Source: an uncultured Thermoanaerobaculia bacterium
GTDB taxonomy: Bacteria > Acidobacteriota > Thermoanaerobaculia > Thermoanaerobaculales > Sulfomarinibacteraceae
Length of the DNA stretch: 64,000 nucleotides
Assembly: GCA_964552395.1 (NCBI GenBank)
Contig: CAZKGM010000001.1
Coordinates: forward strand, 72,408 to 136,407
Direction: 5' to 3'
Shown: positions 2,547-58,841 of the stretch, piece after piece
How positions within the stretch are numbered: position 1 is the first letter of the stretch
Layout of the letters: the number at the start of each line of letters is the position of its first letter
Notes under the pieces: generated by a model
What the model was told of the DNA's origin: nothing
The model's input: the letters and a program-made list of their open reading frames with translations, nothing else
Databases searched by the model: none
Position numbers and translations under genes: made by a program

Positions 2547-2996
2547 ATGCGCAAAGTGTTTGTCAGCTTCTTCGTGCTGGCTTTGACCGTCGGCGTTGCC
2601 GGCGTGGCGGATGCGGGCGCTCCGGGAGCCGCTGGAGCCACCTCCGTACTGACTCATGGTGAGTTCGCCCAGCTGATGATGTCCAGGCTCGCGACCAGGC
2701 AGGCTCCGAAGCTGGAACGCGCGGACGCGCTCGAGCGTGCACAGATGCTCGGTCTGATGCCCGAGCAGTGGGCGGTTGAGTCCGTCATGACTCATGCTGA
2801 GCTCGCTCAGGTGCTCCAGGCCGCTGGGGTCGCTTACTCTCCGCGTGATGCTGAAGCGCCCCTGACCCGTGAGGTTGCCGACACGGTGGTCAGCCAGGAT
2901 GCTGACCAGCTTCGTTCGTATGTTGGAAGGACGATCGGCCGTGCCAGGTCGATCCAGGCGCCAGTAACCCACACGATCAGCGTCTCCGAGTTCTGA
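2547..2996 (+). CDS. Secreted hypothetical protein with two SLH-like short repeats
   Basis: ATG at 2547 is preceded by ggaagggagg. Signal-peptide-like MRKVFVSFFVLALTVGVAGVADA. Two similar segments (LTHGEFAQLM / MTHAELAQVL). A strong terminator lies downstream. Confidence 0.6.
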   Translation: MRKVFVSFFVLALTVGVAGVADAGAPGAAGATSVLTHGEFAQLMMSRLATRQAPKLERADALERAQMLGLMPEQWAVESVMTHAELAQVLQAAGVAYSPRDAEAPLTREVADTVVSQDADQLRSYVGRTIGRARSIQAPVTHTISVSEF

Positions 2997-3023
2997 CCTT
3001 CGACGAGTGACACAGCAACTTGG

Positions 3024-3059
3024 CGGCCGCCGGAGACCCGGCGGCCGTTGTTCTTTTTT
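3024..3059 (+). terminator. Rho-independent terminator
   Basis: cggccgccgg (3024-3033) / agac / ccggcggccg (3038-3047) forms a perfect 10-bp stem, followed by ttgttctttttt. Confidence 0.75.
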
Positions 3060-3262
3060 CAGGGCTTCACCAGTGCCTTGCGGAGATCGTCGAGCACCGG
3101 CGTCAGGTCCTCGATCCCCTTGTCGGCAGCGAGCTCGCGGAGTGTTCCCCAGAACGGTTCGCCACAGCGGATGCAAATGATCCCGTACCGCGCCAAGATC
3201 CTGACGCTCTCGGGCGACTCGGCCACCAGCTCCTCGATGCGGATGTTCGGGGTGATCTCCAT
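3059..3262 (-). CDS. DUF1858 / hybrid-cluster-protein-associated redox disulfide family small protein
   Basis: 67 aa. N-terminal ITPNIRIEELVAESPESVRILARYG and CIRCG motifs match my recollection of the DUF1858 family. Confidence 0.7.
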   Translation of the reverse strand: MEITPNIRIEELVAESPESVRILARYGIICIRCGEPFWGTLRELAADKGIEDLTPVLDDLRKALVKP

Positions 3263-3466
3263 GTCAACGCCTCCGACCAGAGTGTACAGCCAGGTGTAAC
3301 AACTGTCAGCGTCTCTCGTGCCGGCTCCTTTTGCCGGGGTGGAGGCCGAGTGGCGGCTGGCACCGGGAGGTGAATCACGCTAGACTGCGGCTCGCGGCCG
3401 GCCTCCTCGAGCCGGCAGCGGCGACAACTCTCGCCGAGCAGCAGAAGGGCCTCTGAGGAGGAGATC

Positions 3467-6416: not shown

Positions 6417-6890
6417 GTGGGCGGAGACGACGGCCCGAAGAAGATCAAGGTCGTTGACCGGCGTTGGTTCACCGATAACGGCCAGCCTCGCGAGGGCCTG
6501 GGTGGCTCGAGGTCTGCTCCCGCAAGTGCTGACTCGGTCGAAGCGGCTGGGGCTGTGAGCGGCGCGACATCGGAAGCGACTGCGCCCCGGAGCGATGCTG
6601 GTGGGTCGGCGGCGCCGACTCCTGACGAGCTCCGTCCGGACTCGGAGAGCCGCAGATTGCCGAAGGACCTCACCATCGTGCACCTGATCGACTTTCTCGC
6701 GCAGCAGGCGGTGATCCTCATGTCGGGTGCGCATGGCGTTACGAAGGATCCGGACCAGGCCCGAGTCTTCGTCGACTTTCTGGGAGTACTGGAGGCTACA
6801 ACGCGAGGGAACCTCACTCCTGACGAGGCAGGGCTACTGTCGGATGTCCTCTTCCAGCTGCGGACGCTTTACGTCCAGTCGAGCCAATGA
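6417..6890 (+). CDS. DUF1844 domain-containing protein
   Basis: GTG start with gaggagg RBS 7 nt upstream. The C-terminal half (FLAQQAVILMSG ... TRGNLTPDEAGLLSDVLFQLRTLYV) matches the DUF1844 pattern as I recall it. Confidence 0.7.
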   Translation: MGGDDGPKKIKVVDRRWFTDNGQPREGLGGSRSAPASADSVEAAGAVSGATSEATAPRSDAGGSAAPTPDELRPDSESRRLPKDLTIVHLIDFLAQQAVILMSGAHGVTKDPDQARVFVDFLGVLEATTRGNLTPDEAGLLSDVLFQLRTLYVQSSQ

Positions 6891-8698
6891 GGTTAGTGTC
6901 TCGCCTCGTGCTGTTGGCCGTGTTGGTGGCCGTTCCCGCCAGCGCGTCAATGACCCTGAGCGACTCTTGGGTGCGGGTGCAGCAGGCGCTGGCGGCGAAG
7001 GACAAGGCGGCACTGGTAGAAAGCGTCCGGGAGCTCAAGGCCGTTGCGCATGAGACCGATGCGCGACGCTTGACCCCGTACGCTCGCGCATTGGTTGCCT
7101 GGGCCCGGTCCCACCCTGGCGCGACAGGCGATGCTGCGGTGCTCCAGGCCAGAGAGCTGGACCACTGGCTGGCATCGGCGAGTTTCCTCCAGGCTAGGCT
7201 GGAATGGACGCGAGGATCCTACCTGAAGGCGGCCCGCCACTACCTGGCTGGATGGGTCTCGGTGTTTCGCGATGGCCTGACGCGGCGACGGTTTCTGGTT
7301 TCGTCCGGACCATGGCTCCTGCTGTCTCTCGGGGCGGCGTTGTTGGTCGGGATCATCTTACAGGGCCTCCGATTCATGCCTCATATCGGCCATGATGCAC
7401 TTGAGCTCGGACAGCTGCTGTTCAGCCGACCGAACGCGCTCGTGTTTGCGGTAGTTGTTCTGCTGCTGCCCCTGTTCGGGGGCTTGGGACCCATTTGGCT
7501 TGCTGGCTGGCTCTTCGCTCTCAGCCTTCCCTATGTCACGCCGGCGCGTCGCCGCAGTTCGGTTGTCTTCTGGCTGCTACTGGTCGCCGTGGTGCCTGCG
7601 CTCGAGCTGTGGCAAGCCGTTGGTGTTCGACGGACACCGATCATGGAGAGAGCGGCGGTCATGCTCGAAGAACGTCAGGTGGATCTAACAGGACTGCAGG
7701 AGTTTGCCGACCTCGAGCCGCACCTCGACCGTTCGGAGTCCTACCACCTCGTGTTGGGCGCGCTCCTCTATCTTCACAGCGATACTCTGAGCGCCAGAAT
7801 CGAGTTCCAGAGGGCGGCGATCATAGCGGACAAGGACCCGCGGCCGCTTGTGTTTCTCGGCAGCCTGGCGTACCGAGACGGGAATTTCCCGGAGGCAGTA
7901 CAGGACTACAGCTCGGCACTGGACCTGGACTCCGGCTATATTCTTGCCTACTACGACCTGTCCTTCGCCTATGACCAGGCGTACCGCTTTCGGGAGGCGG
8001 ACGGGATGCGAGGCCGCGCGCGCCGTCTGGGGAGTGATGAGCTGCTGCGGAAGATGGGCCGGGCCGGCTCGTCCACGGTCGTGGATCCACCGGTAGGGCG
8101 GGAGCAGGTTGCCCAGATCCGTCGCGAGGTGCCTCCTCTGGAGTGGAGCGCGGCCGGGCTGACCCCGCCACGCCTCGAGCCGGTTCGGTGGTTCCTCAAA
8201 CCGTTCCCACTCTCTCTCCTGACGACCGGTCTGATCGGTTTCGTGGTTTACCCGATTCGAAAGCGATGGCTGTGGACGTCGCGATCGTGCTCGAGGTGTG
8301 GCAAGGTCTTCTGCCGCAGGTGCAAGAGCGCGACCGAGAGCGATGCGTACTGCAGCCAGTGCATATCAGTGTTTCTGAAGCGTGACGTGGTCGCCATCGA
8401 TGCACAGGCGACCAAGCTCGACCAGATTCGTCGCTGGGAGAGACGCTCGACGCTGGCTCGAAGAGGGCTGGCGATTCTCGTTCCAGGGGGGGGCCTGGTG
8501 TTTGCCGGGCAGTGGGCCAGTGGGATCGCTTTCACTTTTGTAGCAGCTGTGAGCGCCTTGGGACTGCTGGTATGGCTCCCCGACTTCGTACGGGAGATCG
8601 AGCCACAGATGGCTGTCGTGCCGCTCCAGGCGGCGTTCATTGTTGGGCTGGCCGCGGCGTGGCTCGGCTCGATCGTTCGGGCCTGGAACAGGTGGTAG
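6887..8698 (+). CDS. TPR-repeat membrane protein with C-terminal zinc-ribbon
   Basis: Signal/TM N-terminus, several TM segments and TPR-like repeats (aa ~300-380). CSRCGKVFCRRC...YCSQC zinc ribbon followed by 2 TM segments. 4-nt overlap with the upstream gene. Confidence 0.7.
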   Translation: MRLVSRLVLLAVLVAVPASASMTLSDSWVRVQQALAAKDKAALVESVRELKAVAHETDARRLTPYARALVAWARSHPGATGDAAVLQARELDHWLASASFLQARLEWTRGSYLKAARHYLAGWVSVFRDGLTRRRFLVSSGPWLLLSLGAALLVGIILQGLRFMPHIGHDALELGQLLFSRPNALVFAVVVLLLPLFGGLGPIWLAGWLFALSLPYVTPARRRSSVVFWLLLVAVVPALELWQAVGVRRTPIMERAAVMLEERQVDLTGLQEFADLEPHLDRSESYHLVLGALLYLHSDTLSARIEFQRAAIIADKDPRPLVFLGSLAYRDGNFPEAVQDYSSALDLDSGYILAYYDLSFAYDQAYRFREADGMRGRARRLGSDELLRKMGRAGSSTVVDPPVGREQVAQIRREVPPLEWSAAGLTPPRLEPVRWFLKPFPLSLLTTGLIGFVVYPIRKRWLWTSRSCSRCGKVFCRRCKSATESDAYCSQCISVFLKRDVVAIDAQATKLDQIRRWERRSTLARRGLAILVPGGGLVFAGQWASGIAFTFVAAVSALGLLVWLPDFVREIEPQMAVVPLQAAFIVGLAAAWLGSIVRAWNRW

Positions 8699-8699
8699 C

Positions 8700-9989
8700 A
8701 TGGCGCTGGAAGGGACCCTCCGCGACTTCAGCTTTGCCGATATCCTGCAATTGATCTCTCTGCAGCGTAAAACGGGCGTCCTGACCCTCAAGAACGAGGG
8801 GAATGTAGTAACGATCTCCTTCATGGATGGCAAGATCGTTGCTGCGAGCGCGCTAAACCAGCAGTCGGAAGATCGTCTCGGTATTATTCTGCTCAAGCAG
8901 GGCGCGCTGAACGAAACCGAGCTCGAGGCGGCACTGAGGAGGCAGGAAGAGACGCTGCAGCGGCTCGGTAGGATTCTCATTGACCATAACATCGTGCCGA
9001 TCGACGTCGTGCGTCGTGCGCTCGAGCAGCAGATCCTGCAGATCGTCTATCGAGTCTTCCGTTGGACGGATGGGGACTACCAGTTCTCGCAGGAGACGGA
9101 GATCGACTACGACCGTGACCTGATGCTCCCTATGGCGGTGGACTCCATCATCATGGAGGGGGCGCGGATGACGGACGAATGGCCGTTCATCGACCAGCGA
9201 ATCCCCAATCGCAATGCGGTCTACAGGAAGGTGGATCCCTCCCGAACCCTAGAAGTGGTCGAGGAAGAGCACGAGTTGGAAGGGCTGGGCTTCACCTTTG
9301 CCGACACTCCGGACGACGCCTTGAAGAAGGCCGCCGGCGGGCGTCGTGTCTCCGAGAACCAGATGACGGCGTACCGGCTCGTGAACGGTCAAGACTCGGT
9401 CGAGGAAATCGTTCTCCGTAGCAATCTCCTGGAGTTTGAGACCTTCAAGGCTCTGGCCGAGCTGCTCGATCGCGGTCTGATTCGCGAGGCGACGCCGGAG
9501 GAGGTTGTCGGCGAGCTGAGCCGGGAGCAGACGCCTGCGCGACGACCAGGCATTCCTTGGGGCTCGGTTCCGTGGCTGGCGCTGCCGTTCCTCGTGCTCC
9601 TGGGGCTGTCGCTGTCGATGATGCTTCAAAACCCCTTGAATCCGGTGTTCGCCGGATCGACCGGTGTTTGGGAGCGCTTTGTCGAGAGCACCTCGTCGTG
9701 GTTCCGGTTGGAACATCTCGCGGATGAGGTGGAGGGCGTTTACTACCTCCGCGGAACGTATCCCAGGAGTATGCAGGACCTGATCGCCTCAGCTGCCGTT
9801 ACCCCCGCCGATACGATCGACCCGTGGGGACGCCCTTACCGGCTGATGATGCGCGGCAACGAGTTTCTCCTGACCGGGTCGGACGCGGCGGGCCAGCCGC
9901 TGCCACTCCTGCTCCTATCCCGTGACCTGGTCTGGGAGAGGGTCGACGACGAGGCCAGCGGACGTCCAGGGCTGGTACTCGTCGAATAG
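8700..9989 (+). CDS. DUF4388 (PATAN)-domain protein with TM segment and C-terminal GspG-like pseudopilin globular domain
   Basis: ATG at 8700, 2 nt after the upstream stop. N-terminus LEGTLRDFSFADILQLISLQRKTGVLTL is the DUF4388 signature. TM at WLALPFLVLLGLSLSMML. C-terminus YYLRGTYPRSMQDL...DPWGRPYRL...LTGSDAAGQP resembles T2SS GspG. Confidence 0.75.
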   Translation: MALEGTLRDFSFADILQLISLQRKTGVLTLKNEGNVVTISFMDGKIVAASALNQQSEDRLGIILLKQGALNETELEAALRRQEETLQRLGRILIDHNIVPIDVVRRALEQQILQIVYRVFRWTDGDYQFSQETEIDYDRDLMLPMAVDSIIMEGARMTDEWPFIDQRIPNRNAVYRKVDPSRTLEVVEEEHELEGLGFTFADTPDDALKKAAGGRRVSENQMTAYRLVNGQDSVEEIVLRSNLLEFETFKALAELLDRGLIREATPEEVVGELSREQTPARRPGIPWGSVPWLALPFLVLLGLSLSMMLQNPLNPVFAGSTGVWERFVESTSSWFRLEHLADEVEGVYYLRGTYPRSMQDLIASAAVTPADTIDPWGRPYRLMMRGNEFLLTGSDAAGQPLPLLLLSRDLVWERVDDEASGRPGLVLVE

Positions 9990-9992
9990 AAC

Positions 9993-10021
9993 TTGACAAA
10001 TCTAGGCTCAGGTCCTAAGCT
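9993..10021 (+). promoter_or_regulatory. Candidate sigma-70-type promoter of dnaK (TTGACA-17-TAAGCT) overlapping a HAIR-like element
   Basis: TTGACA at 9993-9998, 17-nt spacer, TAAGCT at 10016-10021. CTTGACA-N7-GCTCAGG (9992-10012) matches 10 of 14 positions of the HspR HAIR consensus CTTGAGT-N7-ACTCAAG. Confidence 0.5.
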
Positions 10022-10056
10022 TTTCTCTGGTAGAGAAAGTTGAGGAGGCGTCTATC

Positions 10057-11982
<1,926 letters not shown>

Positions 11983-12165
11983 ACCTACGAGCCGGGAGGA
12001 CCGCAGGCGGATCCCCAACAGATTCGGCTGGCGAGCTCAGAGAGCGCCGGGAATCGTGGCGTCGTGTATGTCCCAACTTGGTTCTGGCGGAGAATGGGGG
12101 CTCCGGAGCCCGTGGTAGAGTGAAAGAGCAGGAGGGTTAGCGTTGTTTACCGGTCTGGGGGTGCC

Positions 12166-12618
12166 ATGACGCTGGCGTGGCCGGTGCTCAAGGAGCTGTT
12201 GGCATTGAGAGAACGCCTCAACGAGCTTTTCGACGAGGCTCTTGTCGACAAGACTCTAGGTGTGGGTGAACCGACGAGCGGGCCGTTCTGCCCGGCGGGA
12301 GATCTCTACGAGACGGACGAAGAGATCGTTGTCATTCTAGAAATCCCCGGAGTCGAAGGCAGTTCGGTCGATCTGCAGCTGAACGGTGACCGGCTCCGGG
12401 TGGCCGGCCACATCGGGGGTCCGGAGGATGGCGATGAGGGGACCTACGTTCGTATGGAACGCCCCAGAGGGGCCTTCTTCCGTGACTTTCAGCTGCCGCC
12501 TACGGAGCTGTCCGGCTCGCCCAGCGCGGAGCTGGAGCGCGGAGTGCTGACTGTTCGGCTCCCCAAGGCCGGCGAGGTCCGTCGCCGGCGAGTCGCCGTT
12601 ACAGGGGGCGGCCAGTGA
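12166..12618 (+). CDS. Hsp20/alpha-crystallin family small heat-shock protein
   Basis: Alpha-crystallin domain pattern: PAGDLYETDEEIVVILEIPGV ... FFRDFQLP ... A.LERGVLTVRLPK. Confidence 0.9.
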   Translation: MTLAWPVLKELLALRERLNELFDEALVDKTLGVGEPTSGPFCPAGDLYETDEEIVVILEIPGVEGSSVDLQLNGDRLRVAGHIGGPEDGDEGTYVRMERPRGAFFRDFQLPPTELSGSPSAELERGVLTVRLPKAGEVRRRRVAVTGGGQ

Positions 12619-12989
12619 GCAGCAAACCAAGGTACCGCATGATCTCGTGGGTTGCGGAGACCTACGATGTCCATCCGCAGACCTTGCGGCTATGGGAACG
12701 GGAGGGGTTGCTGCGTCCTCAACGGTCGAAAGGCAACACTCGCCTATATGACGAGGAGACCTGCAGACGCCTCGAGACGATTCTCGCACTGACCCGTGAT
12801 TTGGGTGTCAACTTGGCGGGAGTGGAGATCGTGCTCAACCTCCGGCAACAGATCGAGAGGCTCCAACAGGAAGTGGAGATTCTAACTCGGATCCTCCGGG
12901 AGAAGCTGGAGCAGGAGCGTGGCGTTCCCAGGTACCATGCGCTGGTCAAGGTGCAGACCGGCACCATCCAGCCGACAGACGGCGAATGA
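12615..12989 (+). CDS. hspR: MerR-family heat-shock repressor (HspR-like)
   Basis: MerR HTH (ISWVAETYDVHPQTLRLWEREGLLRPQRSKGNTRLYD) followed by a coiled coil. 4-nt overlap with hsp20. Context with dnaK. Confidence 0.8.
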   Translation: MSSKPRYRMISWVAETYDVHPQTLRLWEREGLLRPQRSKGNTRLYDEETCRRLETILALTRDLGVNLAGVEIVLNLRQQIERLQQEVEILTRILREKLEQERGVPRYHALVKVQTGTIQPTDGE

Positions 12990-13849
12990 CCTCCCGCAGC
13001 TCCGGGCATGACTCTGAGGCGGCGACGCTACGTCGCTACCTGAAGGAGATTTCCCGCTATCCGCCACTGACCCACGACGAAGAGGTGGCGCTCGCGGGGC
13101 GGATCCGCGACGGCGACGAGGAGGCACTGCGCTGCCTGGTGGAGTCGAACCTCCGCTTCGTGGTTGCCTACTCCAAGAGATACCGTAATCCCAATGTACC
13201 GTTCCTCGACCTCATCCACGAAGGCAATCTCGGTCTCATTCAGGCAGCCAAGAAGTACGATCCCTTTAAGGAAGGCCAGGACGTCAAGTTCATCACCTAC
13301 GCCGTGTGGTGGATTCGCCAAGCGATTCTGCATGCCTTGGCGGAGCACGCCGGTTCCTTTCGTTTGCCGCAGAAGCAGGCTAACACCCTCTACCGTCTGG
13401 AGCGAGTTCGGGGGGCGGTTACCGAGCAGCTCGGACGGGCACCGACCGATGAGGAGCTGGCCGAGGAGCTGGGGATCTCGCTGGATGACGTCCGGCTGCT
13501 GTCGCGCGCTGCACAGGCATCGCTGTCGCTGAACGACCCTGTCGACAGTGAAGGTGACTCCGAGCTCGGAGACCTCCTCGAGCAGACGGTGCTGCCGGAC
13601 ACCGACGAGCGCATCCTCCATGACTCCTTCCTGAGGGCCCTGCAGGATGCTCTCTCCGACCTTCCCGAGCGCGAGCGCCGTGTGCTCGAGCTCAGGTTCG
13701 GGTTCGAAGACGATCAGCCGCGGACGTTGCGAGAGATCGGTGAGCTCCTGCAGCTATCCCGAGAGCGTGTTCGTCAGATCGAGAGCCGCGCCCTGAACCA
13801 GCTGCGCCGCAGCCACAAGACCAACGCCCTGGTCGGCTACCTGAACTAA
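12986..13849 (+). CDS. RNA polymerase sigma factor, sigma-70 (RpoD/SigA-like group 2/3, no region 1.1)
   Basis: Regions 2-4 are present: LIHEGNLGLIQAAKKYD, FITYAVWWIRQAI, LPERERRVLELRFG, LSRERVRQIESRAL. 4-nt overlap with hspR. Confidence 0.9.
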   Translation: MTSRSSGHDSEAATLRRYLKEISRYPPLTHDEEVALAGRIRDGDEEALRCLVESNLRFVVAYSKRYRNPNVPFLDLIHEGNLGLIQAAKKYDPFKEGQDVKFITYAVWWIRQAILHALAEHAGSFRLPQKQANTLYRLERVRGAVTEQLGRAPTDEELAEELGISLDDVRLLSRAAQASLSLNDPVDSEGDSELGDLLEQTVLPDTDERILHDSFLRALQDALSDLPERERRVLELRFGFEDDQPRTLREIGELLQLSRERVRQIESRALNQLRRSHKTNALVGYLN

Positions 13850-18294: not shown

Positions 18295-18503
18295 CTGCGG
18301 CTGCCTTCCAGCAATCGTGCGAAGCCTGAAGATGACGTTCCTGGAAGGCGAATGGCCGGCCATGGTGGACCGCTGGGGAAAGACCCGGAGGGCGGTGTGG
18401 GTGCGGTACAATCCGCGCCAGGCGGTGTGCGTACAGCGTCGCAGCCGCCCGGCTGGGGCGAAGTGGTCGGACGCGGTAGGTGCGCGGCCCGTCTGGAGGT
18501 TCT

Positions 18504-19748
18504 ATGCACAAGCAACTGGTAACGACCGTGGTCGGGGTGATCTTGGCTGTCGGTGTGGCCTCGGCGCAGCAGCCGACTCCAAAGCCGCACAGTCTGCTTG
18601 TCAAGCCGCACGTCACCGTTGAGCACTCGCAGCTCGACGTTGGGGAGGTTCTGGCTGGCCGGAAGGTCGTGGCGACGTTCGTATTCCACAACAGTGGACC
18701 CAAACCAGTGAAGATACTGAAGGCAGCTCCGTCTTGAGGCTGCACGGTGACCGGGCATGACCCGGTAATCCCGGCAGGTGGGTCGGGAACGCTTGTTGCG
18801 ACCATTTCAACGCACCCCAACCAACACGGGAAGATCAGAAAGTCAGTTCGTGTCGAGACCGACGACCCCGGGGCTCGGATGCTCATGCTCACGGTCACGG
18901 CGGATCTGCAGCAGCCGATCGAGGTGGAGCCGAGGATCCCGGTATCTGTGGAGGTTAAAGAAGGAGAACCGACCGAGAAGCGTCTCCTGCTTCACCGGCA
19001 GGACGGCAAGCGGCTCGAAGTGACCAAGGTGGCCAGCAGGGATCCGAACCTGGTGATGGCGACAGCGAGCGCCGTGACCCATGAGGAGAAGGTCGACGGA
19101 CTGGTCGCGAGACCGGGTGATGTTTGGCTGGACCTTTCGGTGCCGGGAACACGAGGCAGGAGCTTCGCCACAACCCAGATCTCGGTCGCGTCCACAACGC
19201 CGGACCTGCCGGTGCTCATGGTCCCGGTTTATGTTCGGATCCGTCAGCTCATCGAGGTGATTCCGCCGCAGGCACGGGTGGTCCTTCCGCCGCACGGTGA
19301 TCGACCGCTCGTGAGGCTTGTGAAGTTGCGGCACTCCGGAGGCAAGGAGTTCAAAATCCTGGCGGCGACGAGCGATCACCCAGATTTGTTCTCCGTGGGG
19401 ATCGACGGTACGAAGGCGATGTCGACCCATACTGTGCGGCTCGAAGTGAGCTCGCGAGTGGCCCAGGAGGGGCTGGACCATGCCATTCACGGGCAGGTTG
19501 AGCTTCGGACGAACCTGCCGGAGAGACCGACCATCACGATCCCGGTCGAGGTCACCCCTGTCCGTGCTGCCGCACGGCCGAGCCCCGGAATGATCCGGGG
19601 CATCCGCGGGACCCATCAGGCAACACCGGAGGAGGGCACCCATCTGCGAGGCGGACCGCCGGGAAAACCGACTCCTGTGGGCAGGCCGTCTACAGGCATC
19701 AGATCGGGCGGCGCTGTGGGTGGGAGCGACAGGCCGGAGGGGGCGTGA
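18504..19748 (+). CDS. Secreted multi-domain DUF1573 protein with one in-frame TGA (18735-18737): candidate selenoprotein, or a disrupted gene
   Basis: ORFs 18480..18737 and 18747..19748 share one frame and are separated only by the TGA. Read-through gives ...VFHNSGPKPVKILKAAPS-[TGA]-GCTVTGHDPVIPAGGSGTLVATIS..., i.e. the DUF1573 S-C-G-C-T motif with TGA at the first Cys. Signal peptide from the ATG at 18504, with a ggagg RBS. Confidence 0.55.
18750..18787 (+). promoter_or_regulatory. Two hairpins downstream of the in-frame UGA (candidate bacterial SECIS)
   Basis: ACCGGG (18750-55) / CAUGA / CCCGGU (18761-66), with the loop starting 19 nt after the UGA. CCCGGC (18770-75) / AGGUGG / GUCGGG (18782-87), with one G-U pair. 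Confidence 0.3.
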
Positions 19749-19839
19749 CGGCAGGGCGTGGCACCCGAGAGGGGGGAAAGATGTTCATCGGTGATTCTCG
19801 CCTGGTCCCGTGCCAAGGCGTCTGGACTCCAGGGGAAAC

Positions 19840-21012
19840 ATGGCCATGAGCGGGGGTCGAAACGTACCTGAGGGCGGCGGGGAGCAAGGATCCGTTGAAG
19901 GTCTGCGCGATCTTGCTGCGATTGGGGCTCCCGAGATCTTCGAGCATCTTCGGAAGGGAGTTCTGGGCCAGGATGCGGCTTTGCATTTCGTGTCCGTCGC
20001 TGTGTTCAAGCACGTGACGGGGAAGGTCCCTGGGAACATCCTGCTGATCGGCAACTCGGGCACCGGCAAGACCACAATCATGAACAATATCCAGCGCCTC
20101 TACCAAGAGGTGCCCGAGTATCGCCCATTTCGGGCGATGACCATCATCAATGCCAACTTGCTGGTTGACCCGGACCGCATGGAGTTCCGGCCAGAGCGGG
20201 TTCTGACGGCGGCGGAGCAACGAGCTCGTTCGGTCCTCGGTACGCGGCCTACGGCCGCCGAGCTGAAGACCGCCATGGAACGGGCCACGATTTGTATCGA
20301 CGAGGTGGACAAGATGGCGTCGGTGGTTGCCGGCAAGCCCAACCCGATCGGTGTCGTCCTCCAGCAGGGTCTGCTCACGCTCATGGAGGGAGAGCGGGTG
20401 GCCTACCGGACCCATGCGGTCGTCGACGGCGAGGAGCAGGCCATCACGCTCGATATCGATACGAGCCACATGATGTTCATCTGCGGTGGCGCGTTCGAGG
20501 GACTGTATGACCAGGTGTACCTGAGGGTTGTGAAACCCGGGAGCGGTGAGAAGCTCAAGTCGCACGCGATTCAGACCGCCGACGGCCAGGTACGGATCGA
20601 GACCCGGTTTGCGCTCGCAGACTTCATCAAGCCGGAGGATCTGTTCACTTACGGGATGGTGCCCCAGTTCATGGCTCGCTTCGACAATACGGTGCTTCTC
20701 AACGACCTCTCAGTCGAGGTGCTCAAGGAGATTCTGATCAGATCAGTCGACTCTCCATTCCTCCGGTCCAGGCGCTACTTCGAGGTGTTGAACATACGGC
20801 TTGAGCTCGAGGACCTGGCAGCATCGCTGATCGCCGAGCAGGCGGAGAAACACACGCGGACGGGGGCCCGCGCGTTGCGCAGCATCTTCGGGAGAATCGC
20901 CAACCGGCTCGAGTTTGATCCGTGGCGATATGAGGGGCTCGAGGAGGGGACCGACGGCACATACCGTCTCGTGATTACGGCCGATCTTGTACGCCGGCGG
21001 CTCGCCCTGTAG
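19840..21012 (+). CDS. ClpX-like AAA+ ATPase paralogue lacking zinc-binding domain, GYVG pore loop and IGF loop
   Basis: Walker A LLIGNSGTGKT, Walker B ICIDEVDK, ClpX-type MFICGGAFEGL, GMVPQFMARF and TGARALRSI. There is no N-terminal Cys cluster, no GYVG, and GSGEKLKS stands where ClpX has GSGIGFGA. Confidence 0.8.
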   Translation: MAMSGGRNVPEGGGEQGSVEGLRDLAAIGAPEIFEHLRKGVLGQDAALHFVSVAVFKHVTGKVPGNILLIGNSGTGKTTIMNNIQRLYQEVPEYRPFRAMTIINANLLVDPDRMEFRPERVLTAAEQRARSVLGTRPTAAELKTAMERATICIDEVDKMASVVAGKPNPIGVVLQQGLLTLMEGERVAYRTHAVVDGEEQAITLDIDTSHMMFICGGAFEGLYDQVYLRVVKPGSGEKLKSHAIQTADGQVRIETRFALADFIKPEDLFTYGMVPQFMARFDNTVLLNDLSVEVLKEILIRSVDSPFLRSRRYFEVLNIRLELEDLAASLIAEQAEKHTRTGARALRSIFGRIANRLEFDPWRYEGLEEGTDGTYRLVITADLVRRRLAL

Positions 21013-24092: not shown

Positions 24093-24797
24093 ATGTCCGA
24101 GGGCACCAAGCTGAAGAAGTCGAGACCTGACGGTCGCTTGCCTTGCGTGCTCGAGATGGAACGGGACTTGCTTGAGACAAGCCTAAGGATGGCGGGGAGG
24201 ATCATGCGAGCTGTTCGATCGACGGCGGTGGGTAGAGGGGCCGACGGGAGCAGTCAAGACTTCATCAACGAGGTGCTCAGCCTTGGGAGGGAGCTTGTGG
24301 GCTCGTTGGAGAGGTCGATTGTCAGTGTGGGACACGGTTTGGCAAGCACCGTTGTGCCTGCTGGCAAACTCAGGCTTCTTGTTCTTGGCTTGCCCATTCC
24401 GGTCTTCGGTTACATCGGGGATGACAATCAAGAAGTCCTTCAGCAGGTGACTGAGTTTCTGCGGCGGTCTCTGGAGGGCGAGCTGAGAAACGGGCACCGG
24501 CTTGCGCTCCACACGTTCACGTGCTGTCTTCACGTCCTCGACCACCGTCAGATCCTGGGGTGGCTGCCCCAGGTCGGTCGGCTCGCGAAGCGGGGTGAGC
24601 CAGCATTTCTGGGTGCGCAGCTCGTGACCCTCTACCCATTCACGGAGGAGGAGATCCGACACTGGCCGCAGGCGCCCCCTGGCGCGCTTGCCTGTGCGCT
24701 GTGCTTGGAGCAGATGATAGGTGATGTGTACTCGTTCATGGACCAGCTGCTGGCTGAGCGCTGTCGCTCGGCCTCCAGACAGGGGGAACGGATGTAG
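24093..24797 (+). CDS. Orphan hypothetical protein (no family recognised)
   Basis: 234-aa ORF. By hand count it has more G/C at third positions than the overlapping antisense frame. A canonical terminator lies 44 nt downstream. Many CTT/TTG/AGG/AGA codons, unlike neighbouring genes. Confidence 0.45.
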   Translation: MSEGTKLKKSRPDGRLPCVLEMERDLLETSLRMAGRIMRAVRSTAVGRGADGSSQDFINEVLSLGRELVGSLERSIVSVGHGLASTVVPAGKLRLLVLGLPIPVFGYIGDDNQEVLQQVTEFLRRSLEGELRNGHRLALHTFTCCLHVLDHRQILGWLPQVGRLAKRGEPAFLGAQLVTLYPFTEEEIRHWPQAPPGALACALCLEQMIGDVYSFMDQLLAERCRSASRQGERM

Positions 24798-24840
24798 TTT
24801 GCACCGGAACCGGGCGTATTCAAGACCCTCCATCCTCATC

Positions 24841-24891
24841 GTGACCGTGGGTCCGTCCTCCCTCAATCCCACGGTCACCCTTTTTTTCCCC
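24841..24891 (+). terminator. Rho-independent terminator
   Basis: gtgaccgtggg (24841-51) / 16-nt loop / cccacggtcac (24868-78) forms a perfect 11-bp stem, followed by cctttttttcccc (7 consecutive T). Confidence 0.8.
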
Positions 24892-24992
24892 TTGCACAGG
24901 CCTGGGATTCGGCGAATGAACGATCTCACCGCAGGAGGGTACGGCTGCTGCGGGGGCTTGACAGCATCGCTGCGATCTCTCCGGAAGGGGCG

Positions 24993-25580
24993 GTGTATCA
25001 TGACGCGGTGAAGGTATATACGAAGATGGGAGACCGGGGTGAGACGTCGCTCTTCTCTGGGGGACGGGTGCGGAAGAGCCACCCGCGGGTAGAGGCGTAC
25101 GGGACTGTGGACGAGCTTGGATCGGCTCTCGGGCTGCTTGTCACAGAGCTCTCTGACGCGAGTGCGAAGGGGCACCTCCACACCGCCCAGGCGGCGCTGC
25201 TGGCCATCGGGAGCGCTCTTGCAGATCCTGAGGGCCGCATGGCACAGGATCCGGCAAGCTGGGATGCAGCTCAGCTTGAGGCGTGGATCGATGAGATGAG
25301 CGCCGAGCTGCCACCATTGACGGCCTTCATACTCCCGGGGGGCAGCCGTGCGGCCGCCGTCTCCCACGTGGCTCGCACCGTATGCCGACGTGCGGAGCGA
25401 CGGGTCCAGAACGTCGACACCGCGGAGGAGCCGGTACCCGCCGGTATCCTGTCCTATCTCAACCGCCTGTCGGACGCCTTGTTCGTCCTTGCCCGCCTGT
25501 CGAATCACAGGCAGGGTGTTGACAGCCCGGAGTGGCGACCGCGGCCCGCCGACCCCAGCGGGGGCGCTACCGGGGCGTGA
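24993..25580 (+). CDS. ATP:cob(I)alamin adenosyltransferase, PduO type
   Basis: VKVYTKMGDRGETSLFSGGRV.K...RVEAYGTVDEL is the PduO-type N-terminal signature. The start is GTG at 24993 or 25008. Confidence 0.88.
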   Translation: MYHDAVKVYTKMGDRGETSLFSGGRVRKSHPRVEAYGTVDELGSALGLLVTELSDASAKGHLHTAQAALLAIGSALADPEGRMAQDPASWDAAQLEAWIDEMSAELPPLTAFILPGGSRAAAVSHVARTVCRRAERRVQNVDTAEEPVPAGILSYLNRLSDALFVLARLSNHRQGVDSPEWRPRPADPSGGATGA

Positions 25581-25779
25581 TACGCCGGGCTGGTACACTA
25601 TGCGTATGGTCACCGAACCCTCGGAGCCCGATCCGGTACCCCCCCCGGCCCCGGGACGTCCCTCCCTCGCGATCGATGGCCGGCTCTGAGTTCCGCAGGG
25701 AAAGCTGCCGCCGGCGAGGTGCCGGCGCGGAGAGGGCGGGCCAGCGGTCCCCTGACGACCGAGCCCGGACAGAGGCGCA

Positions 25780-26760
25780 ATGCAGAAGCTGACCATCCAT
25801 GAGCGCCATGCCAAGCGTCTCTTCGGTATCCAGGATGAGAATCTGCGCTACCTTGAGGACCGCTTGCGGGTTACCCTCAGCGCCCGCGGTACCGAGGTGA
25901 TGATCACCGGCGACTCCGGGGCCGAGCAGATCACGGCTCGACTCCTGACATCGTTCGATAGCCTGATTGCGGCCGGCTGCGAGATCGGCCGCGAGGAGTT
26001 CAGGACCGGCGTCCGCGTCCTCGAAGAGGACCTCGAGATCGACCTCGTTGAGTTCTTCCTCGACACCAGCATTCCAGATGCCCTGAAGCGCTACGTTGTC
26101 CCACGGAACATGACCCAGCGGCTGTTCGTGCAGTCGATCGTCAAGCATGACTACGTTTTCGCCACCGGTCCGGCGGGGACAGGCAAGACCTACCTGGCCG
26201 TGGCGATGGCTGCCGCGTACCTTCTCGACAAGCAGGTCCGCAGGATTGTCCTCACCCGACCGGCTGTGGAAGCGGGGGAACGGCTCGGCTTTCTACCCGG
26301 CGACCTGGCGGAGAAGATCAACCCCTACCTCCGTCCGATCTATGACGCTCTGTACGATATTCTCGGATACGAGAAGGTCTCCCGCCTGATGGAACGACAG
26401 ATGATCGAGGTCGCCCCCCTCGCTTTCATGCGCGGAAGGACCTTGAACGACGCCTTCATCATCCTCGACGAGGCACAGAACACCACTCGCGAGCAAATGA
26501 AGATGTTCCTGACGCGGATGGGCTTCCACTCGAAGACCGTGATTACCGGAGACATAACGCAGATCGACCTTCAGGGTGGGAGGACATCGGGTATGGTCGA
26601 GGCGATCAGCGTCCTGCGAGATGTGGAAGGGATCGCCTTCATCGGCTTCACGCACCGGGATGTCGTGCGCCATCGGCTGGTGCAACGCATCGTGGACCGC
26701 TACGAGCAGTGGGAGATGCAGTCGGAAGGCCACGAGTCTGAGGGGCCGCGAGATGGTTAG
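25780..26760 (+). CDS. phoH: PhoH family ATPase (PhoH/YbeZ)
   Basis: Walker A GPAGTGKTYLAVA, ILDEAQN, GDITQIDL. Context upstream of ybeY. Confidence 0.95.
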   Translation: MQKLTIHERHAKRLFGIQDENLRYLEDRLRVTLSARGTEVMITGDSGAEQITARLLTSFDSLIAAGCEIGREEFRTGVRVLEEDLEIDLVEFFLDTSIPDALKRYVVPRNMTQRLFVQSIVKHDYVFATGPAGTGKTYLAVAMAAAYLLDKQVRRIVLTRPAVEAGERLGFLPGDLAEKINPYLRPIYDALYDILGYEKVSRLMERQMIEVAPLAFMRGRTLNDAFIILDEAQNTTREQMKMFLTRMGFHSKTVITGDITQIDLQGGRTSGMVEAISVLRDVEGIAFIGFTHRDVVRHRLVQRIVDRYEQWEMQSEGHESEGPRDG

Positions 26761-34262: not shown

Positions 34263-34421
34263 GGTAACACCGAGCGGCCGGCGGAGCCAAGAGACAGCCG
34301 CGGCCTGTCAGGCATTGGACGGGCCATGCAGCTGTGAAGTCGTCTCAATATCTAGGGTGCGGGGAGTCATGCTAATATTGCTCGTCTGCTCATGCGCGGC
34401 ATCTGCAATGGGGGGCTCACC

Positions 34422-34874
34422 ATGAATCAAGAGACCGGCAGGGCGAAGCCGACGCGGCGGCGCGTCGTCGACTGGCTTCTGGGTACGGCGGTCGGAGGCG
34501 TGGTCGCCTCTATCCTGTACCCGGTGCTGCGCTACGTGATGCCGCCAAAGGTAGCCGAGGCCCAGACCAACAGCGTCATGGCCGGCAAGCTCTCCCAGCT
34601 TGCGCCCAACACCGGCCACATCTTCCGCTTCGGCTCCAAGCCCGGCATCGTCATCAGGACGCCGGCGGGAGATGTCAGGGCGTTCAGCGCGGTGTGCACG
34701 CACCTGCAGTGTACGGTACAGTACAGGACCGACTTCCAGGCGATCTGGTGTGCCTGTCACAACGGTCGCTACAACCTGAACGGGATCAACGTCGCCGGGC
34801 CTCCACCGCGCCCGCTCACCAAGTACAAGGTCGCCATCAAGGGCGACGATATCTGGGTGTCAAGGGAAGGTTGA
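34422..34874 (+). CDS. Rieske [2Fe-2S] subunit of a cytochrome bc-type complex
   Basis: Tat-like RRRVVDWLLG plus a TM, and CTHLQC...CACHNGRY Rieske boxes. Directly upstream of cytochrome b. Confidence 0.9.
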   Translation: MNQETGRAKPTRRRVVDWLLGTAVGGVVASILYPVLRYVMPPKVAEAQTNSVMAGKLSQLAPNTGHIFRFGSKPGIVIRTPAGDVRAFSAVCTHLQCTVQYRTDFQAIWCACHNGRYNLNGINVAGPPPRPLTKYKVAIKGDDIWVSREG

Positions 34875-34877
34875 GCC

Positions 34878-35960
34878 ATGCGAATCCTCGACAGCGCCTA
34901 CCGTTACCTCGACGAACGCTTGGAGCTGCAACCACTGGTTGAGTTTGCCAGCCACAAGGAGGTTCCGAGACACCGCTTCGACTGGGCCTACTACTTCGGA
35001 GGCCTGACCCTGTTCTTCTTCATCGTCCAGGTGTGCTCTGGCATCTTGCTGCTGCTGTACTACCGGCCCACTGCAGAGGCAGCATTCGAGAGCGTGCAGT
35101 TCATCGTGACCCACGTTCCTTTCGGATGGCTGGTGCGGTCGATTCACTCGTGGTCCGCCAACCTGATGATTCTGTCAGCGTTTCTGCACATGTTCTCGGT
35201 CCTGTTCATGAAGTCGTACGCCAAGCCGAGGGAGATGACCTGGTGGACCGGATGCCTGATGCTGGCGCTCGGCCTCGGCTTCGGTTTCTCGGGCTACCTC
35301 CTGCCGTGGAACAAGTTAGCCTTCTTCGCGACCCGCGTCGGCACCGACATGACGAGCAAAGTGCCGTTCATCGGCGACTGGCTGATGCACGTTCTCCGGG
35401 GTGGCGATGACGTGACGGGAGCGACGTTGACACGGTTCTTCGGCATCCACGTGGCGGTGTTGCCGATGCTGATGGCCGGACTCATCGCGCTCCATCTCCT
35501 GTTCATCCAGCGCCAGGGGATTCACGTTCCGATGGGCGCTGCCGAGGAGAGCAAGGCACGGCCGGGGATGAAGTTCTTCCCCGACTTCGCGCTCCGCGAG
35601 GCGGTGGTTTGGCTGATCGGGCTGGCCCTTCTGGCCTTCCTCGCGGCCTACTTCCCGTGGAACCTGGGTGTCAAGGCTGATCCGTTTGCGTCGGCGCCGG
35701 CGGGCATCAAGCCGGAGTGGTACTTCCTGTTCATGTTCGAGTCCCTGAAGCTCATTCCGGGCCACGTTCTCGGTATCGAGGGCGAGCTGCTCGGCCTCGG
35801 GGCCTTCGCGGTGCTCGGAGTGTTCTGGTTCCTCATCCCGCTGCTCGATCGCCGTTCCAGCAGAGGCGAGCGCTCGCCGCTGTTCACCTTGATCGGTGCG
35901 GTGGCGCTCGCATTCATCGCAGGGATGACCATCCTGTCGTTCTTGGGGGTGTTCTCGTGA
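34878..35960 (+). CDS. Cytochrome b (b6 plus subunit-IV-like fusion)
   Basis: YYFGGLTLFFF.VQ..SGILLLLYY, SIHSWSANLMI and LPWN motifs, with additional C-terminal TM helices. Confidence 0.92.
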   Translation: MRILDSAYRYLDERLELQPLVEFASHKEVPRHRFDWAYYFGGLTLFFFIVQVCSGILLLLYYRPTAEAAFESVQFIVTHVPFGWLVRSIHSWSANLMILSAFLHMFSVLFMKSYAKPREMTWWTGCLMLALGLGFGFSGYLLPWNKLAFFATRVGTDMTSKVPFIGDWLMHVLRGGDDVTGATLTRFFGIHVAVLPMLMAGLIALHLLFIQRQGIHVPMGAAEESKARPGMKFFPDFALREAVVWLIGLALLAFLAAYFPWNLGVKADPFASAPAGIKPEWYFLFMFESLKLIPGHVLGIEGELLGLGAFAVLGVFWFLIPLLDRRSSRGERSPLFTLIGAVALAFIAGMTILSFLGVFS

Positions 35961-37234
35961 CGCAGCAAGCCCGTTCTCACGTGCTCGTGATCCTGCTGAC
36001 CGCATGTGTCGTCGTGTCCGCGCCGGCATGGGGGTCTCCAGATCAGGGCTCAGCACCGGCGAGCGCAACGCCAGGAGGTACCTGCCAGACCTGTCACCTA
36101 CAGCTCGACGAGCCCGCGCTGAAGGACCCAGCGGTCGGATTCGAGCATGATGTGCACGATCGGCCGGGACTGGGGTGCGTCGCATGCCATGGCGGTGACC
36201 CGACGGCAGACGATCCCGATGAGTCCATGAGCCCGAAGCACGGGTTCAAGGGTGCGCCGAAACCGGGCGAGATTCCGAAGCTGTGCGGAACCTGTCACGC
36301 CGACGAAGAGGTGATCAGGAAGTTCGCTCCGAACCTCCCGACGGATCAGCTCTCGCAGTACCTTACCAGCGTCCACGGTAAGCTGAACCGCAAGGGTGAT
36401 ACCAAGGTGGCGACGTGTATCTCGTGCCACGGCGTACATGGCATCTACGCCGCCAGTGACCCGCGTTCCTCGGTTTACCCGACCCGCGTCGTGGACACCT
36501 GTGCCAAGTGCCACGCCGACGCCAAGCTGATGGCGCCGTACGGGATCTCGACGGACCAGGTGGCCAAGTACAAGAAGTCCTTTCACTTCGAGGCGTTGAC
36601 CGTCCAAAACGACCTCTCCGCGCCGACCTGCAACGACTGCCACGGCTCGCATGGCGCGACCCCTCCGGGAGTGTCGTCGATCTCCAACGTCTGTGGAACA
36701 TGCCACCCGCAGAACATGGACCTGTTTCAGAAGTCACCCCATTCCAAGGTGTTCGCGGACCAGGGAATGGGAGCCTGCGAGGCGTGCCACGGACACCATG
36801 ACATCCCGAAGCCCAGCGACGGCCTCGTGGGGCTCAAGGAAGGTGCCGCATGCGTCCAGTGCCACGACTCCGGAGATCCGGGGGGCGAGGCCGCCATCGC
36901 CATCAGCACCTCGCTGGAGCTGGCAACCGACACCGAGAGCCGCGCCGCTCAAGAGGTGGCCGAGGCTCAGCGCAAGGGCATGCTGATGGAAGATGCCGAC
37001 ATCGAGCTGCAGACCGCCCACGAGGAGATCATCAAGGCGCGCTTGGAGGTCCACCAGGCATCTCTCGGACCGGTCAATGAGCACACGTCCAAGTCCGTGA
37101 CGGCCGCCAAGAAGTCGCTGGCCCTGGCCGCCGAGGCGCGACACGAGATCCATGTCAGACGCACCGGCCTGTCGATCGCTTTCGTGTTCATTGTCTTCGC
37201 GATCATCCTGCTGATACTGAAGATTCGGAGCTGA
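35957..37234 (+). CDS. Nine-haem c-type cytochrome with C-terminal membrane anchor
   Basis: GTG at 35957 overlaps the cytochrome b stop (GTGA). Signal peptide, nine CxxCH motifs (CQTCH, CVACH, CGTCH, CISCH, CAKCH, CNDCH, CGTCH, CEACH, CVQCH) and a terminal TM. Confidence 0.85.
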   Translation: MTQQARSHVLVILLTACVVVSAPAWGSPDQGSAPASATPGGTCQTCHLQLDEPALKDPAVGFEHDVHDRPGLGCVACHGGDPTADDPDESMSPKHGFKGAPKPGEIPKLCGTCHADEEVIRKFAPNLPTDQLSQYLTSVHGKLNRKGDTKVATCISCHGVHGIYAASDPRSSVYPTRVVDTCAKCHADAKLMAPYGISTDQVAKYKKSFHFEALTVQNDLSAPTCNDCHGSHGATPPGVSSISNVCGTCHPQNMDLFQKSPHSKVFADQGMGACEACHGHHDIPKPSDGLVGLKEGAACVQCHDSGDPGGEAAIAISTSLELATDTESRAAQEVAEAQRKGMLMEDADIELQTAHEEIIKARLEVHQASLGPVNEHTSKSVTAAKKSLALAAEARHEIHVRRTGLSIAFVFIVFAIILLILKIRS

Positions 37235-39016: not shown

Positions 39017-39188
39017 ATCCCTACCTTTCCACGTCGTCTCAATTGAGCGCCAATCGGGATTATAGCAATGCCGACGAGTAACGACGCGTTTCCCTGACCC
39101 GCAGGACCCTACAGTATTTGCGATACTTTGACATTGTTTGGAGAAAAACGGGTTCCGATCGAGCTCGGCAGCCCGTATATTGGTTTTC

Positions 39189-39890
39189 ATGGAACCGGCA
39201 CGAAGAGCTGTTCTGCTGACGGGCGCATCGAGACAGTGGATGCAAAAGGCAGCGCCGCGCCTCGAAAGGTACGGTCTCCGGGTCCATGAAGCGGACTGGG
39301 AGGACGCTGTCCTCGATCTCGTCGAGCGCGTACCGTTCGGAGTTGTGGTGGCCGGCTACCCGCTAACAGGAGCCGGTTTCGGACTTCTCCTGAGCGCTGT
39401 CCGGGCCCGGTCCTCCTCCTGCCGGCGGGCTGGATTCGTGGCCGTCACGCCGCCGGACCGATTCGATGAGGCAAGCCGGCTGGTGGGTCGCGGCGTGAAC
39501 AAGGTCCTGTCGGAGGCGGCACCCCTGCACGAGCTCGGGCTCCTTGTCACATCACTTCTCGATGCGCCACCGAGGCTTCCGGTGAGGGTTCAGGTGCGGA
39601 TCACCGTGCAGCAGGAAGACGGACAGGTGGAGGTACTCTGTCAGACAGAGAACATCTCCACATCGGGCATGCTGCTGCGGCGAAGGAGTATCTCGACTCC
39701 AGGTACGCGAATCGACTTCCAGATCCAGCTGCCCGGACGGGAAGAGATGATCCAGGGCAGCGCCGAGGTGGCGCGAGTGGCGGATCCGGATCGAGAGGGA
39801 TTGGAAGGCTTTGCAGCGCGCTTCCTGGACTTCGACGGTTCCAGCCGCGAGGAGTGGGAGAGCTTCCTGGAGGCCCGGGCTCTTCCGTAG
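39189..39890 (+). CDS. Pseudo-receiver/PilZ domain protein (c-di-GMP binding predicted)
   Basis: C-terminal PilZ motifs (RLPVRVQVRI ... TENISTSGMLL). The N-terminal ~120 aa are REC-like but lack the acidic pocket (VVVAGYPL where a receiver has the phospho-Asp). Confidence 0.75.
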   Translation: MEPARRAVLLTGASRQWMQKAAPRLERYGLRVHEADWEDAVLDLVERVPFGVVVAGYPLTGAGFGLLLSAVRARSSSCRRAGFVAVTPPDRFDEASRLVGRGVNKVLSEAAPLHELGLLVTSLLDAPPRLPVRVQVRITVQQEDGQVEVLCQTENISTSGMLLRRRSISTPGTRIDFQIQLPGREEMIQGSAEVARVADPDREGLEGFAARFLDFDGSSREEWESFLEARALP

Positions 39891-42650: not shown

Positions 42651-42782
42651 AGCAAACCGCCCGCCGAAGCGGGCGCAACACATCTTAGCAGAATCAGGTA
42701 GCTTAGGCGAGACCCACGCGAGGATTGCAGCCCGGGGCTCTGACGAGTGAACGCAGTCGTATCGGCGGCTGAAGAACCTGCG

Positions 42783-53136: not shown

Positions 53137-53198
53137 GGTCCGCGGGTGAGACGCCCGCGCTATCGTGAACGGACAGCTCAGGGATGACAGGAGGAATC

Positions 53199-57309: not shown

Positions 57310-57441
57310 CGGTTCCTCATCCGGTATTGTAGGGCGATCGCGGCGAAGCCGGCCAGCAGCCGCCAGCCTCGGGCCTCCGAGCGGGTACGAGAATGATGCG
57401 GTCCGCGGCAGGCGGTCGTAGAATCCGTCGAGGAGGTTCCC

Positions 57442-58605: not shown

Positions 58606-58841
58606 CCCGAAACTCCTCAACATCCCATGGCTCCGATGGTCTCCGGGCCGACACGGCGGGTTGGTGAGAAGACGATGGAACCTCGAAGGCGCGAAGAGCA
58701 CCAAGACAAGAAATCGAAGATCCTCTTGGCGATGAACAAGTGGGCTGTGGCAGCGATCGATACACCGGCCGAGAAGGGCTCGCTTCAGCGAGCTGGACAC
58801 CCAGGATCAACATCGGCCGGCTGAGACTGTGGCCACCGCGG

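Follow-up and report, generated by a model that had tools for sequence, protein, structure and literature searches.

A family entered as "DUF1573 domain-containing protein, PF07610, motif UGC" stands in two reviews of prokaryotic selenoproteins (PMC9312934, PMC13188914), and both trace it to the 2007 study of Olavius symbionts by Zhang & Gladyshev, in which two OS_HP2 sequences were reported (PMC1976440). Here I describe a gene of this kind at 18504-19748 on the forward strand of a 64,000-nucleotide (nt) stretch of contig CAZKGM010000001.1, from an uncultured Thermoanaerobaculia bacterium; this whole stretch is called the window below. The gene is interrupted by one in-frame UGA. On the comparative evidence, this UGA is very probably a genuine selenocysteine (Sec) codon and 18504-19748 a single gene for an exported Sec protein. 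The gene adds an unannotated member to the listed DUF1573/OS_HP2 selenoprotein family and is no new category.

The protein and OS_HP2 have the same PF07610 domain, the same Sec position and the same U-G-C motif; Cys homologues exist, and the function is likewise unknown. The original OS_HP2 members belong to deltaproteobacterial worm symbionts, whereas the named relatives of the window protein are Acidobacteriota metagenome-assembled genomes (MAGs), and the architecture of three immunoglobulin (Ig)-like domains plus a tail is a further difference. The NCBIfam model NF041425, "OS_HP2 family (seleno)protein", matches residues 41-134 of the window protein with E = 4e-19. Judged by its domain matches, the gene belongs to the known family at the Pfam level and shares its Sec position, but its large clade lies outside the curated model. 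Selenoproteins as such are known in Acidobacteria (PMC1794560, Table 2).

A preliminary description of this DNA had pointed to two open reading frames (ORFs) in the same frame, parted by a single TGA at 18735-18737, and this holds: the frames 18480/18504..18737 and 18747..19748 are joined by a read-through translation, ...KILKAAPS-[UGA]-GCTVTGHDPVIPAGGSG..., identical to the one given there. The peptide across the site is AAPS-U-GCTVTGHDPVIPAGGSGTLVATISTHPNQHGK, the TGA taking the place of the first Cys in the C-G-C motif of DUF1573 and the product motif being ...PS-U-GC-T.... The upstream start, which had been placed at GTG 18480, had to be corrected. The true start is ATG 18504: a GGAGG ribosome-binding site (18495-18499) lies 4 nt 5' of it, the arrangement TGGAGG-N5-ATG is kept in the window and in the two closest lineages read (L001, assembly GCA_022340775.1, and L003), and the gene product and its orthologues have the N-terminus MHKQL in common. 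Both orthologues are colinear with the gene over its full length and contain the same lone TGA. The complete gene, read through the stop, has 414 codons and a stop codon, with Sec at codon 78. About 95 nt 5' of the start codon lies a promoter-like box, TGCGGTACAATCCGCGCC (18402-18419, with TACAAT at 18407-18412), identical in these three lineages within intergenic sequence that is otherwise divergent among them; it is probably the -10 region of a promoter.

When Cys is written at the stop, PF07610 gives one unbroken match over residues 38-133 (51.1 bits against a cutoff of 26.1), covering profile positions 2-96 of 98. The claim that the TGA replaces the first Cys of a DUF1573 core is thereby borne out, and the stop therefore lies inside a domain rather than between two genes. 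This Ig-like domain, encoded at 18615-18902, is also matched by PF22544 (30.8 bits) and by NF041425. Its likely structure can be read from a model of P0033, the closest full-length Cys homologue, which was predicted with AlphaFold from a 100-sequence alignment and stands in for the window protein. The model has a predicted local distance difference test (pLDDT) score of 91.4 and a predicted TM-score of 0.80, and comprises three tandem beta-sandwich domains after an unstructured N-terminus. In domain 1 the C-G-C forms a tight turn between strands 62-69 and 74-78, with four strands on either side of it. A genuine stop at this turn would therefore cut a beta sandwich in half.

The closest relatives returned by a protein search are C-terminal "fragments" only, with 75% and 71% identity, and the contigs of these close relatives share the layout seen here: a 77-codon N-terminal piece, one TGA, and then the remainder. 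TGA occupies the same codon in 9/9 lineages whose DNA was read at the Sec position (the nine-lineage set), from 75% down to ~30% protein identity, and in none of them is it TGC or TGT. The lineage at 75% identity was assembled independently three times (L001, L002, L008), always with TGA; the lineage of the window was also recovered from two other runs (L004, L005), TGA again being present; and the codon is TGA in L003 and in L009-L014 as well. Searches of genome and metagenome contigs for further orthologue DNA brought up the L001 lineage alone, as L006 and L008. Because the L001 and window lineages both show the TGA in independent assemblies or runs, and because it recurs in at least seven independent assemblies overall, sequencing error, which the preliminary description had kept as an alternative, is ruled out.

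The same split probably extends much further. A HMMER scan of 1.84 billion representatives, with the part after the UGA as the query, yielded 542 relatives. Among the best 100 of these (50%-identity cluster representatives), 63 gene calls begin within a few residues after U-G-C-T, with N-termini "[M/V]AE[Y/F]DSVIPAGGSG..." or "VIPAGGSG...", 29 start further downstream, and only 8 cover the full length, with C-x-C. DNA of six distant members (~30-40% identity) showed an upstream piece in 6/6 cases, terminated by TGA at this codon. Thus some 90 of the best 100 of the 542 relatives probably have gene calls that start after the Sec position because of the same split, and the data, with DNA confirmation in nine lineages, suggest at least 63 further 50%-identity clusters of this form. 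In all full-length relatives the aligned residue is Cys (P0033, for instance, reads ...KPSCGCTVADYDRVIPAGGTG); position 78 is an invariant Cys in the alignment with P0004-P0008, C-x-C occurs at the aligned position in 31 full-length relatives, and at the Cys-form control loci L015 and L016 (controls P0152 and P0004) the codon is TGC. The comparison of relatives thus gives TGA in close and distant relatives alike, and Cys in full-length homologues that are more distant still.

Both halves of the gene are under purifying selection. Within the close trio (the window, L001 and L003 lineages), the ratio of nonsynonymous to synonymous substitution rates (dN/dS) is 0.21-0.32 before the UGA and 0.14-0.21 after it, with dS of 0.64-1.08, so that the coding character claimed for both sides is upheld (0.14-0.32 overall). 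No extra stops or frameshifts were seen in any relative. Since dN/dS is low on both sides of the UGA and no other stop or frameshift has appeared in the relatives, the gene is not decaying, and the downstream part, whose decay would have spoken against a Sec codon, shows no sign of it.

Directly after the UGA the constraint reaches the nucleotide level, over 18 codons at 18738-18789 that I take as the candidate SECIS (selenocysteine insertion sequence) region on the strength of synonymous-site and codon-identity tests. The close trio agrees at 14/17 degenerate codons after the UGA, whereas the share elsewhere is 35% (binomial P = 1e-4); dS is only 0.07-0.24 there, against 0.64-1.08 elsewhere, and the three variable sites (18740, 18749, 18767) all lie outside both of the stems described below. 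The deep set, seven lineages among which synonymous sites are expected to be saturated, gives the same picture: where the residue is the same, the codon is also identical in 237/272 cases (87%) at codons +1 to +18, against 45% elsewhere and 46% in the 30 codons directly upstream of the UGA, and of all 18-codon stretches in the gene, the one that scores highest begins at +1/+2. Codons that this genome, rich in G and C at third codon positions, disfavours are fixed here (GGT and GGA in 7/7 lineages, GCA in 5/5 of those with Ala at that site). The Cys form L016 encodes the same IPAGGSG peptide through GCG, GGC and GGC, and its hairpins are weaker and different.

Two adjacent hairpins occupy this region, and both fold where the preliminary description had placed them. 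Hairpin 1, ACCGGG/CAUGA/CCCGGU (18750-18766), has a 6-bp stem and a 5-nt loop at -9.4 kcal/mol; its apical loop begins, as had been stated, at the 19th nt after the UGA, a UGA-loop spacing of 18 nt. Hairpin 2, UCCCGGC/AGGUGG/GUCGGGA (18769-18788), carries GGU at its apex and folds at -10.9 kcal/mol with a UGA-loop spacing of 38 nt. Each has z ~ -2.8 against shuffles. Hairpin 2 is present in 9/9 lineages (-11.2 to -13.3 kcal/mol); L013 and L014 form it from other sequence, with a longer stem and a GGU triloop, at a spacing of 39 nt. Hairpin 1 is broken in L014, the most distant member.

In an in-register alignment of the nine sequences, 96.6% of cells are paired. Changes on both sides occur at four pairs, 16:32 (AU/GU/GC) and 20:28 (G-C to A-U, 4 sequences against 4) in hairpin 1, and 39:50 (G-C to U-A) and 40:49 (G-U to C-G) in hairpin 2. 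The covariation score is 0.188, against 0.098 in shuffles (0/500 reach 0.188), and it is at most 0.098 when the partners are slid. As the hairpins are invariant in the close trio, covariation cannot be seen there and becomes visible only with the distant Sec forms. A residue-coupling comparison of 47 Sec-type and 31 Cys-type clusters agrees: 42/47 of the Sec forms, but 0/31 of the Cys forms, have E/S or G/P at residues +6/+9 (codons GAG:UCG or GGG:CCG), and Ala (GCA) at +13 goes with Ser (UCG) at +16 in 30/30 Sec forms against 2/9 Cys forms, with the caveat that the Sec forms may owe part of this to being a single clade. These compensatory changes, together with the synonymous suppression in the 18 codons after the UGA, supply the conserved downstream hairpin on which the proposal of a Sec codon had depended.

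How far does this element resemble known bacterial SECIS (bSECIS) elements? The published bSECIS model has a loop of 3-9 nt, a stem of 4-16 bp, a G in the first two loop positions, a UGA-loop spacing of 16-37 nt and a minimum free energy (MFE) of at most -7.5 kcal/mol (PMC13188914, Fig. 2), and a subset of real bSECIS elements falls outside it (PMC13188914). The bacterial-SECIS geometry proposed in the preliminary description stands in part: both hairpins fit the model in loop size (5 and 6 nt; 3 nt in L013/L014), in stem length (6-7 bp) and in MFE, and each departs from it in one respect, given below. The Escherichia coli fdhF SECIS, whose sequence was verified in >5,400 genomes, was folded beside the window element. 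Both are stem-loops within coding sequence just after the UGA, and they have the apical loop edge GC/AGGU in common (GC-AGGUCU-GC in fdhF, GC-AGGUGG-GU in hairpin 2). However, the GGU lies at nt 22-24, counted from the U of UGA, in fdhF and at nt 43-45 here, exactly 7 codons further; the gap before it is filled here by the separate, conserved 17-nt hairpin 1, unlike in fdhF, and the bulged U of fdhF has no equivalent in the window element.

On this basis I propose that the UGA at 18735-18737 would be decoded as Sec by the bacterial SelB/tRNA-Sec pathway, with the mRNA element at 18738-18789, two adjacent hairpins within coding sequence directly after the UGA, as the directing signal. Hairpin 2 would be the SelB-binding hairpin, its GGU loop resembling the one that SelB binds in E. 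coli fdhF. Hairpin 1 would act as a conserved spacer or helper between the UGA and hairpin 2, folded at the mRNA entrance of the ribosome and shortening the effective distance. The product would consist of a signal peptide, the DUF1573 Ig-like domain, two further Ig-like domains and a Pro/Gly-rich tail, and the tight turn between two beta strands of the DUF1573 domain would bear Sec-Gly-Cys in place of the usual Cys-Gly-Cys. That Sec is inserted here through a distinct two-hairpin class of bacterial SECIS, with the SelB loop 38-39 nt from the UGA and beyond the reach of standard search tools, is a tentative proposal, and one I would not yet call probable.

Several observations weigh against a Sec codon or against the signal proposed for it. 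Hairpin 1 fails the G rule of the bSECIS model, though only that rule, for it has no G in the first two loop positions; hairpin 2 has a G at loop position 2 and fails only on spacing, at 38-39 nt against the limit of 37. Folding of the whole region gives z of -1.0 to -1.8 (-1.0 to -1.2 for the 56-66 nt after the UGA, -1.0 for the 56 nt alone), unexceptional for this GC content (the window DNA has 65% GC), and whole-region folding energy is no useful discriminator in such GC-rich DNA. Rfam gave no match over the whole window at gathering thresholds, and a permissive Rfam scan of 18700-18850 returned chance-level matches only and no SECIS family. The covarying bases also change amino acids, and the structure was taken from one aligned sequence, so that the covariation signal could be partly protein-level or phylogenetic. 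On NF041425 the window protein scores 68.7 bits against the curated cutoff of 100, and five other Sec forms and three Cys forms of the clade score 61-93 bits, all below it. Finally, the 64-kb window yielded neither tRNA nor tmRNA with ARAGORN, and thus no tRNA-Sec; Pfam found no SelA, SelB or SelD among its 40 largest genes, and no second selenoprotein gene was found. Since the window holds neither Sec machinery nor a second selenoprotein gene, I infer the Sec trait of this organism, with its nearest named relatives among the Acidobacteriota and the selenoproteins of Acidobacteria as supporting context.

The most serious rival to a Sec codon is a UGA recoded to Cys or Ser by a tRNA-Sec-like opal suppressor, either a selC*-type tRNA-Cys(UCA) or an acidobacterial allo-tRNA, possibly working with a SelB-like factor and the same hairpins. 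Mukai et al. described selC* tRNA-Cys species with UCA anticodons beside selB-like genes, and also allo-tRNAs in Acidobacteria that may act as nonsense suppressors (PMC5389517). The present case is alike in that the in-frame UGA falls on a Cys/Sec position and the phylum is one from which unusual tRNA-Sec-like tRNAs have been reported, the named relatives of the gene being Acidobacteriota MAGs; no canonical Sec machinery is seen in the window. However, the selC* systems described come from Firmicutes, Thermodesulfobacteria, Nitrospirae and Proteobacteria, with none from Acidobacteria (PMC5389517), whereas ordinary selenoproteins are present in Acidobacteria (PMC1794560), and DUF1573 with U-G-C is already catalogued as a selenoprotein family. 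ARAGORN found no such tRNA in the window either, and no cysS* or selB* gene was seen. It would also be hard to explain why a costly UGA and SECIS should be kept across ~100 clusters just for Cys, when TGC would suffice. I consider this suppressor improbable, and Sec insertion through the two-hairpin SECIS, tentative as that is, the more probable of the two. If the suppressor were real, SECIS-guided insertion of a standard amino acid would occur in nature and be conserved in this large clade.

A different objection is that two genes lie here, one for a secreted peptide of 77 residues and one for a protein of 333 residues that re-initiates at GTG 18747, with the GAGG within UGAGGC as its ribosome-binding site. 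Gene callers split the locus in this way in every assembly, public annotation does likewise, and GTG stands at codon +4 in 8/9 lineages with GAGG 7 nt upstream. Yet L003 has GTT at codon +4 and so is unable to restart there. Two genes would moreover halve one beta-sandwich domain, four strands lying each side of the C-G-C turn in the P0033 model, and would leave the larger piece without a signal peptide; the nucleotide constraint extends 40 nt downstream of the GTG and not upstream, and each full-length homologue is one protein, with a Cys precisely where the stop lies. Such an arrangement thus seems less probable still than suppression. An artefact, or a dying gene recently struck by a nonsense mutation, would need no more than a single base change from TGC or TGT to TGA, but the same TGA in all of the assemblies listed above, the purifying selection on both halves and the lack of any other stop or frameshift in the relatives refute it, and I give it next to no weight. 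I give equally little to a variant genetic code that would make UGA a codon for Trp or Gly, for which nothing speaks but the in-frame UGA itself. TGA ends 32/57 crude gene calls in the window, no other window gene has an internal in-frame TGA, and release factor 2 (RF2) is encoded (prfB, 41519-42901 on the reverse strand, 490 bits) with its autoregulatory frameshift site; because TGA serves elsewhere as an ordinary stop and RF2 is present, a variant code is excluded. That +1 frameshift site, near 42572, reads ...CGG GGG TAC CTT TGA C (canonical CUU UGA C) with a Shine-Dalgarno-like GGGGG upstream, and is a second, well-known UGA recoding event of the window.

If the UGA is read as Sec, the protein is predicted to be exported, with ~414 residues. 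A putative Sec-type signal peptide, MHKQLVTTVVGVILAVGVASA (18504-18566), is recognizable by inspection from its positive N-region, hydrophobic core and A-S-A motif; the equivalent N-terminal stretch of the modelled homologue P0033 is unstructured (pLDDT 55-63). After the DUF1573 domain, two more Ig-like all-beta domains (~residues 139-350; 18903-19553) are predicted from the alignment to the P0033 model, with approximate boundaries, and they are followed in the translation by a Pro/Gly/Arg-rich C-terminal tail (~residues 351-414; 19554-19745) that is poorly conserved among orthologues and missing from distant homologues. The matches of a Foldseek search with the P0033 model were all generic tandem Ig/ASH arrays, namely HYDIN-type ciliary proteins, an RTX adhesin, titin and the Porphyromonas gingivalis protein 2qsv of unknown function, and they gave no functional clue. 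Outside the cytoplasm, the U-x-C pair most likely either forms a selenylsulfide with redox activity or binds a metal.

Public records hold the gene as two truncated "hypothetical proteins" (e.g. MCG6963934.1, NOZ78277.1), because the clade lies outside the curated NF041425 model, and the examples checked among P0009-P0157 are annotated 'hypothetical protein', none being marked as a selenoprotein. As the clade is split in the records and missed by NF041425, the annotation and the counts of the acidobacterial selenoproteome are therefore too low; an extended NF041425 model, or a lower cutoff, would fix many records at once. The gene is also a well-supported addition to the selenoproteins of unknown function, one whose product is apparently exported, and its two-hairpin element, with a GGU loop just outside the spacing of bSECISearch-type tools, offers a test case for the distance between the SelB loop and the UGA.

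Directly 3' of the selenoprotein gene lies a gene for a ClpX-like AAA+ ATPase (19810-21012 on the forward strand; Pfam AAA_2), which is not a true ClpX, its 129 bits on the ClpX model falling short of the cutoff of 359. It is a conserved downstream neighbour: an AAA+ gene holds this place in the window, in L001 (2139-3305) and in L012 (1419-2366), and is near in L011 (3867-4008). In L012 the AAA+ neighbour is 77% identical, whereas the selenoprotein is only ~34% identical. This gene neighbourhood hints that the two products may be functional partners. In one distant relative, L010, a ParE toxin/Phd-YefM antitoxin pair (2784-3383, reverse strand) stands just 3' of the selenoprotein gene, probably incidentally.

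Elsewhere in the window, two further same-frame TGA junctions were considered as Sec candidates and rejected, one at 34872 (Rieske/cytochrome b) and one at 46907 (periplasmic protein/Lnt), both being ordinary neighbouring genes; a more sensitive scan of the window for internal in-frame TGA returned antisense shadows and gene starts only. A respiratory cluster at 34392-37234 (forward strand) encodes a Rieske iron-sulfur protein, cytochrome b and a multihaem cytochrome c with paired CXXCH motifs (c7/c3-like). Four ORFs of 432-645 amino acids, 6887-8698 and 53184-54482 on the forward strand and 24183-25814 and 37253-39190 on the reverse, have coding-like composition and no Pfam match at E <= 1e-5, and a 777-residue protein (56467-58800, reverse strand) has a Sir2 domain solely in its C-terminal third (residues 525-697). 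A stress-response cluster at 8640-13849 (forward strand) comprises a DUF4388/PatA_N protein, DnaK (HSP70), HSP20, a MerR-type regulator and a sigma-70 family factor, and the same order is found on contig L004.

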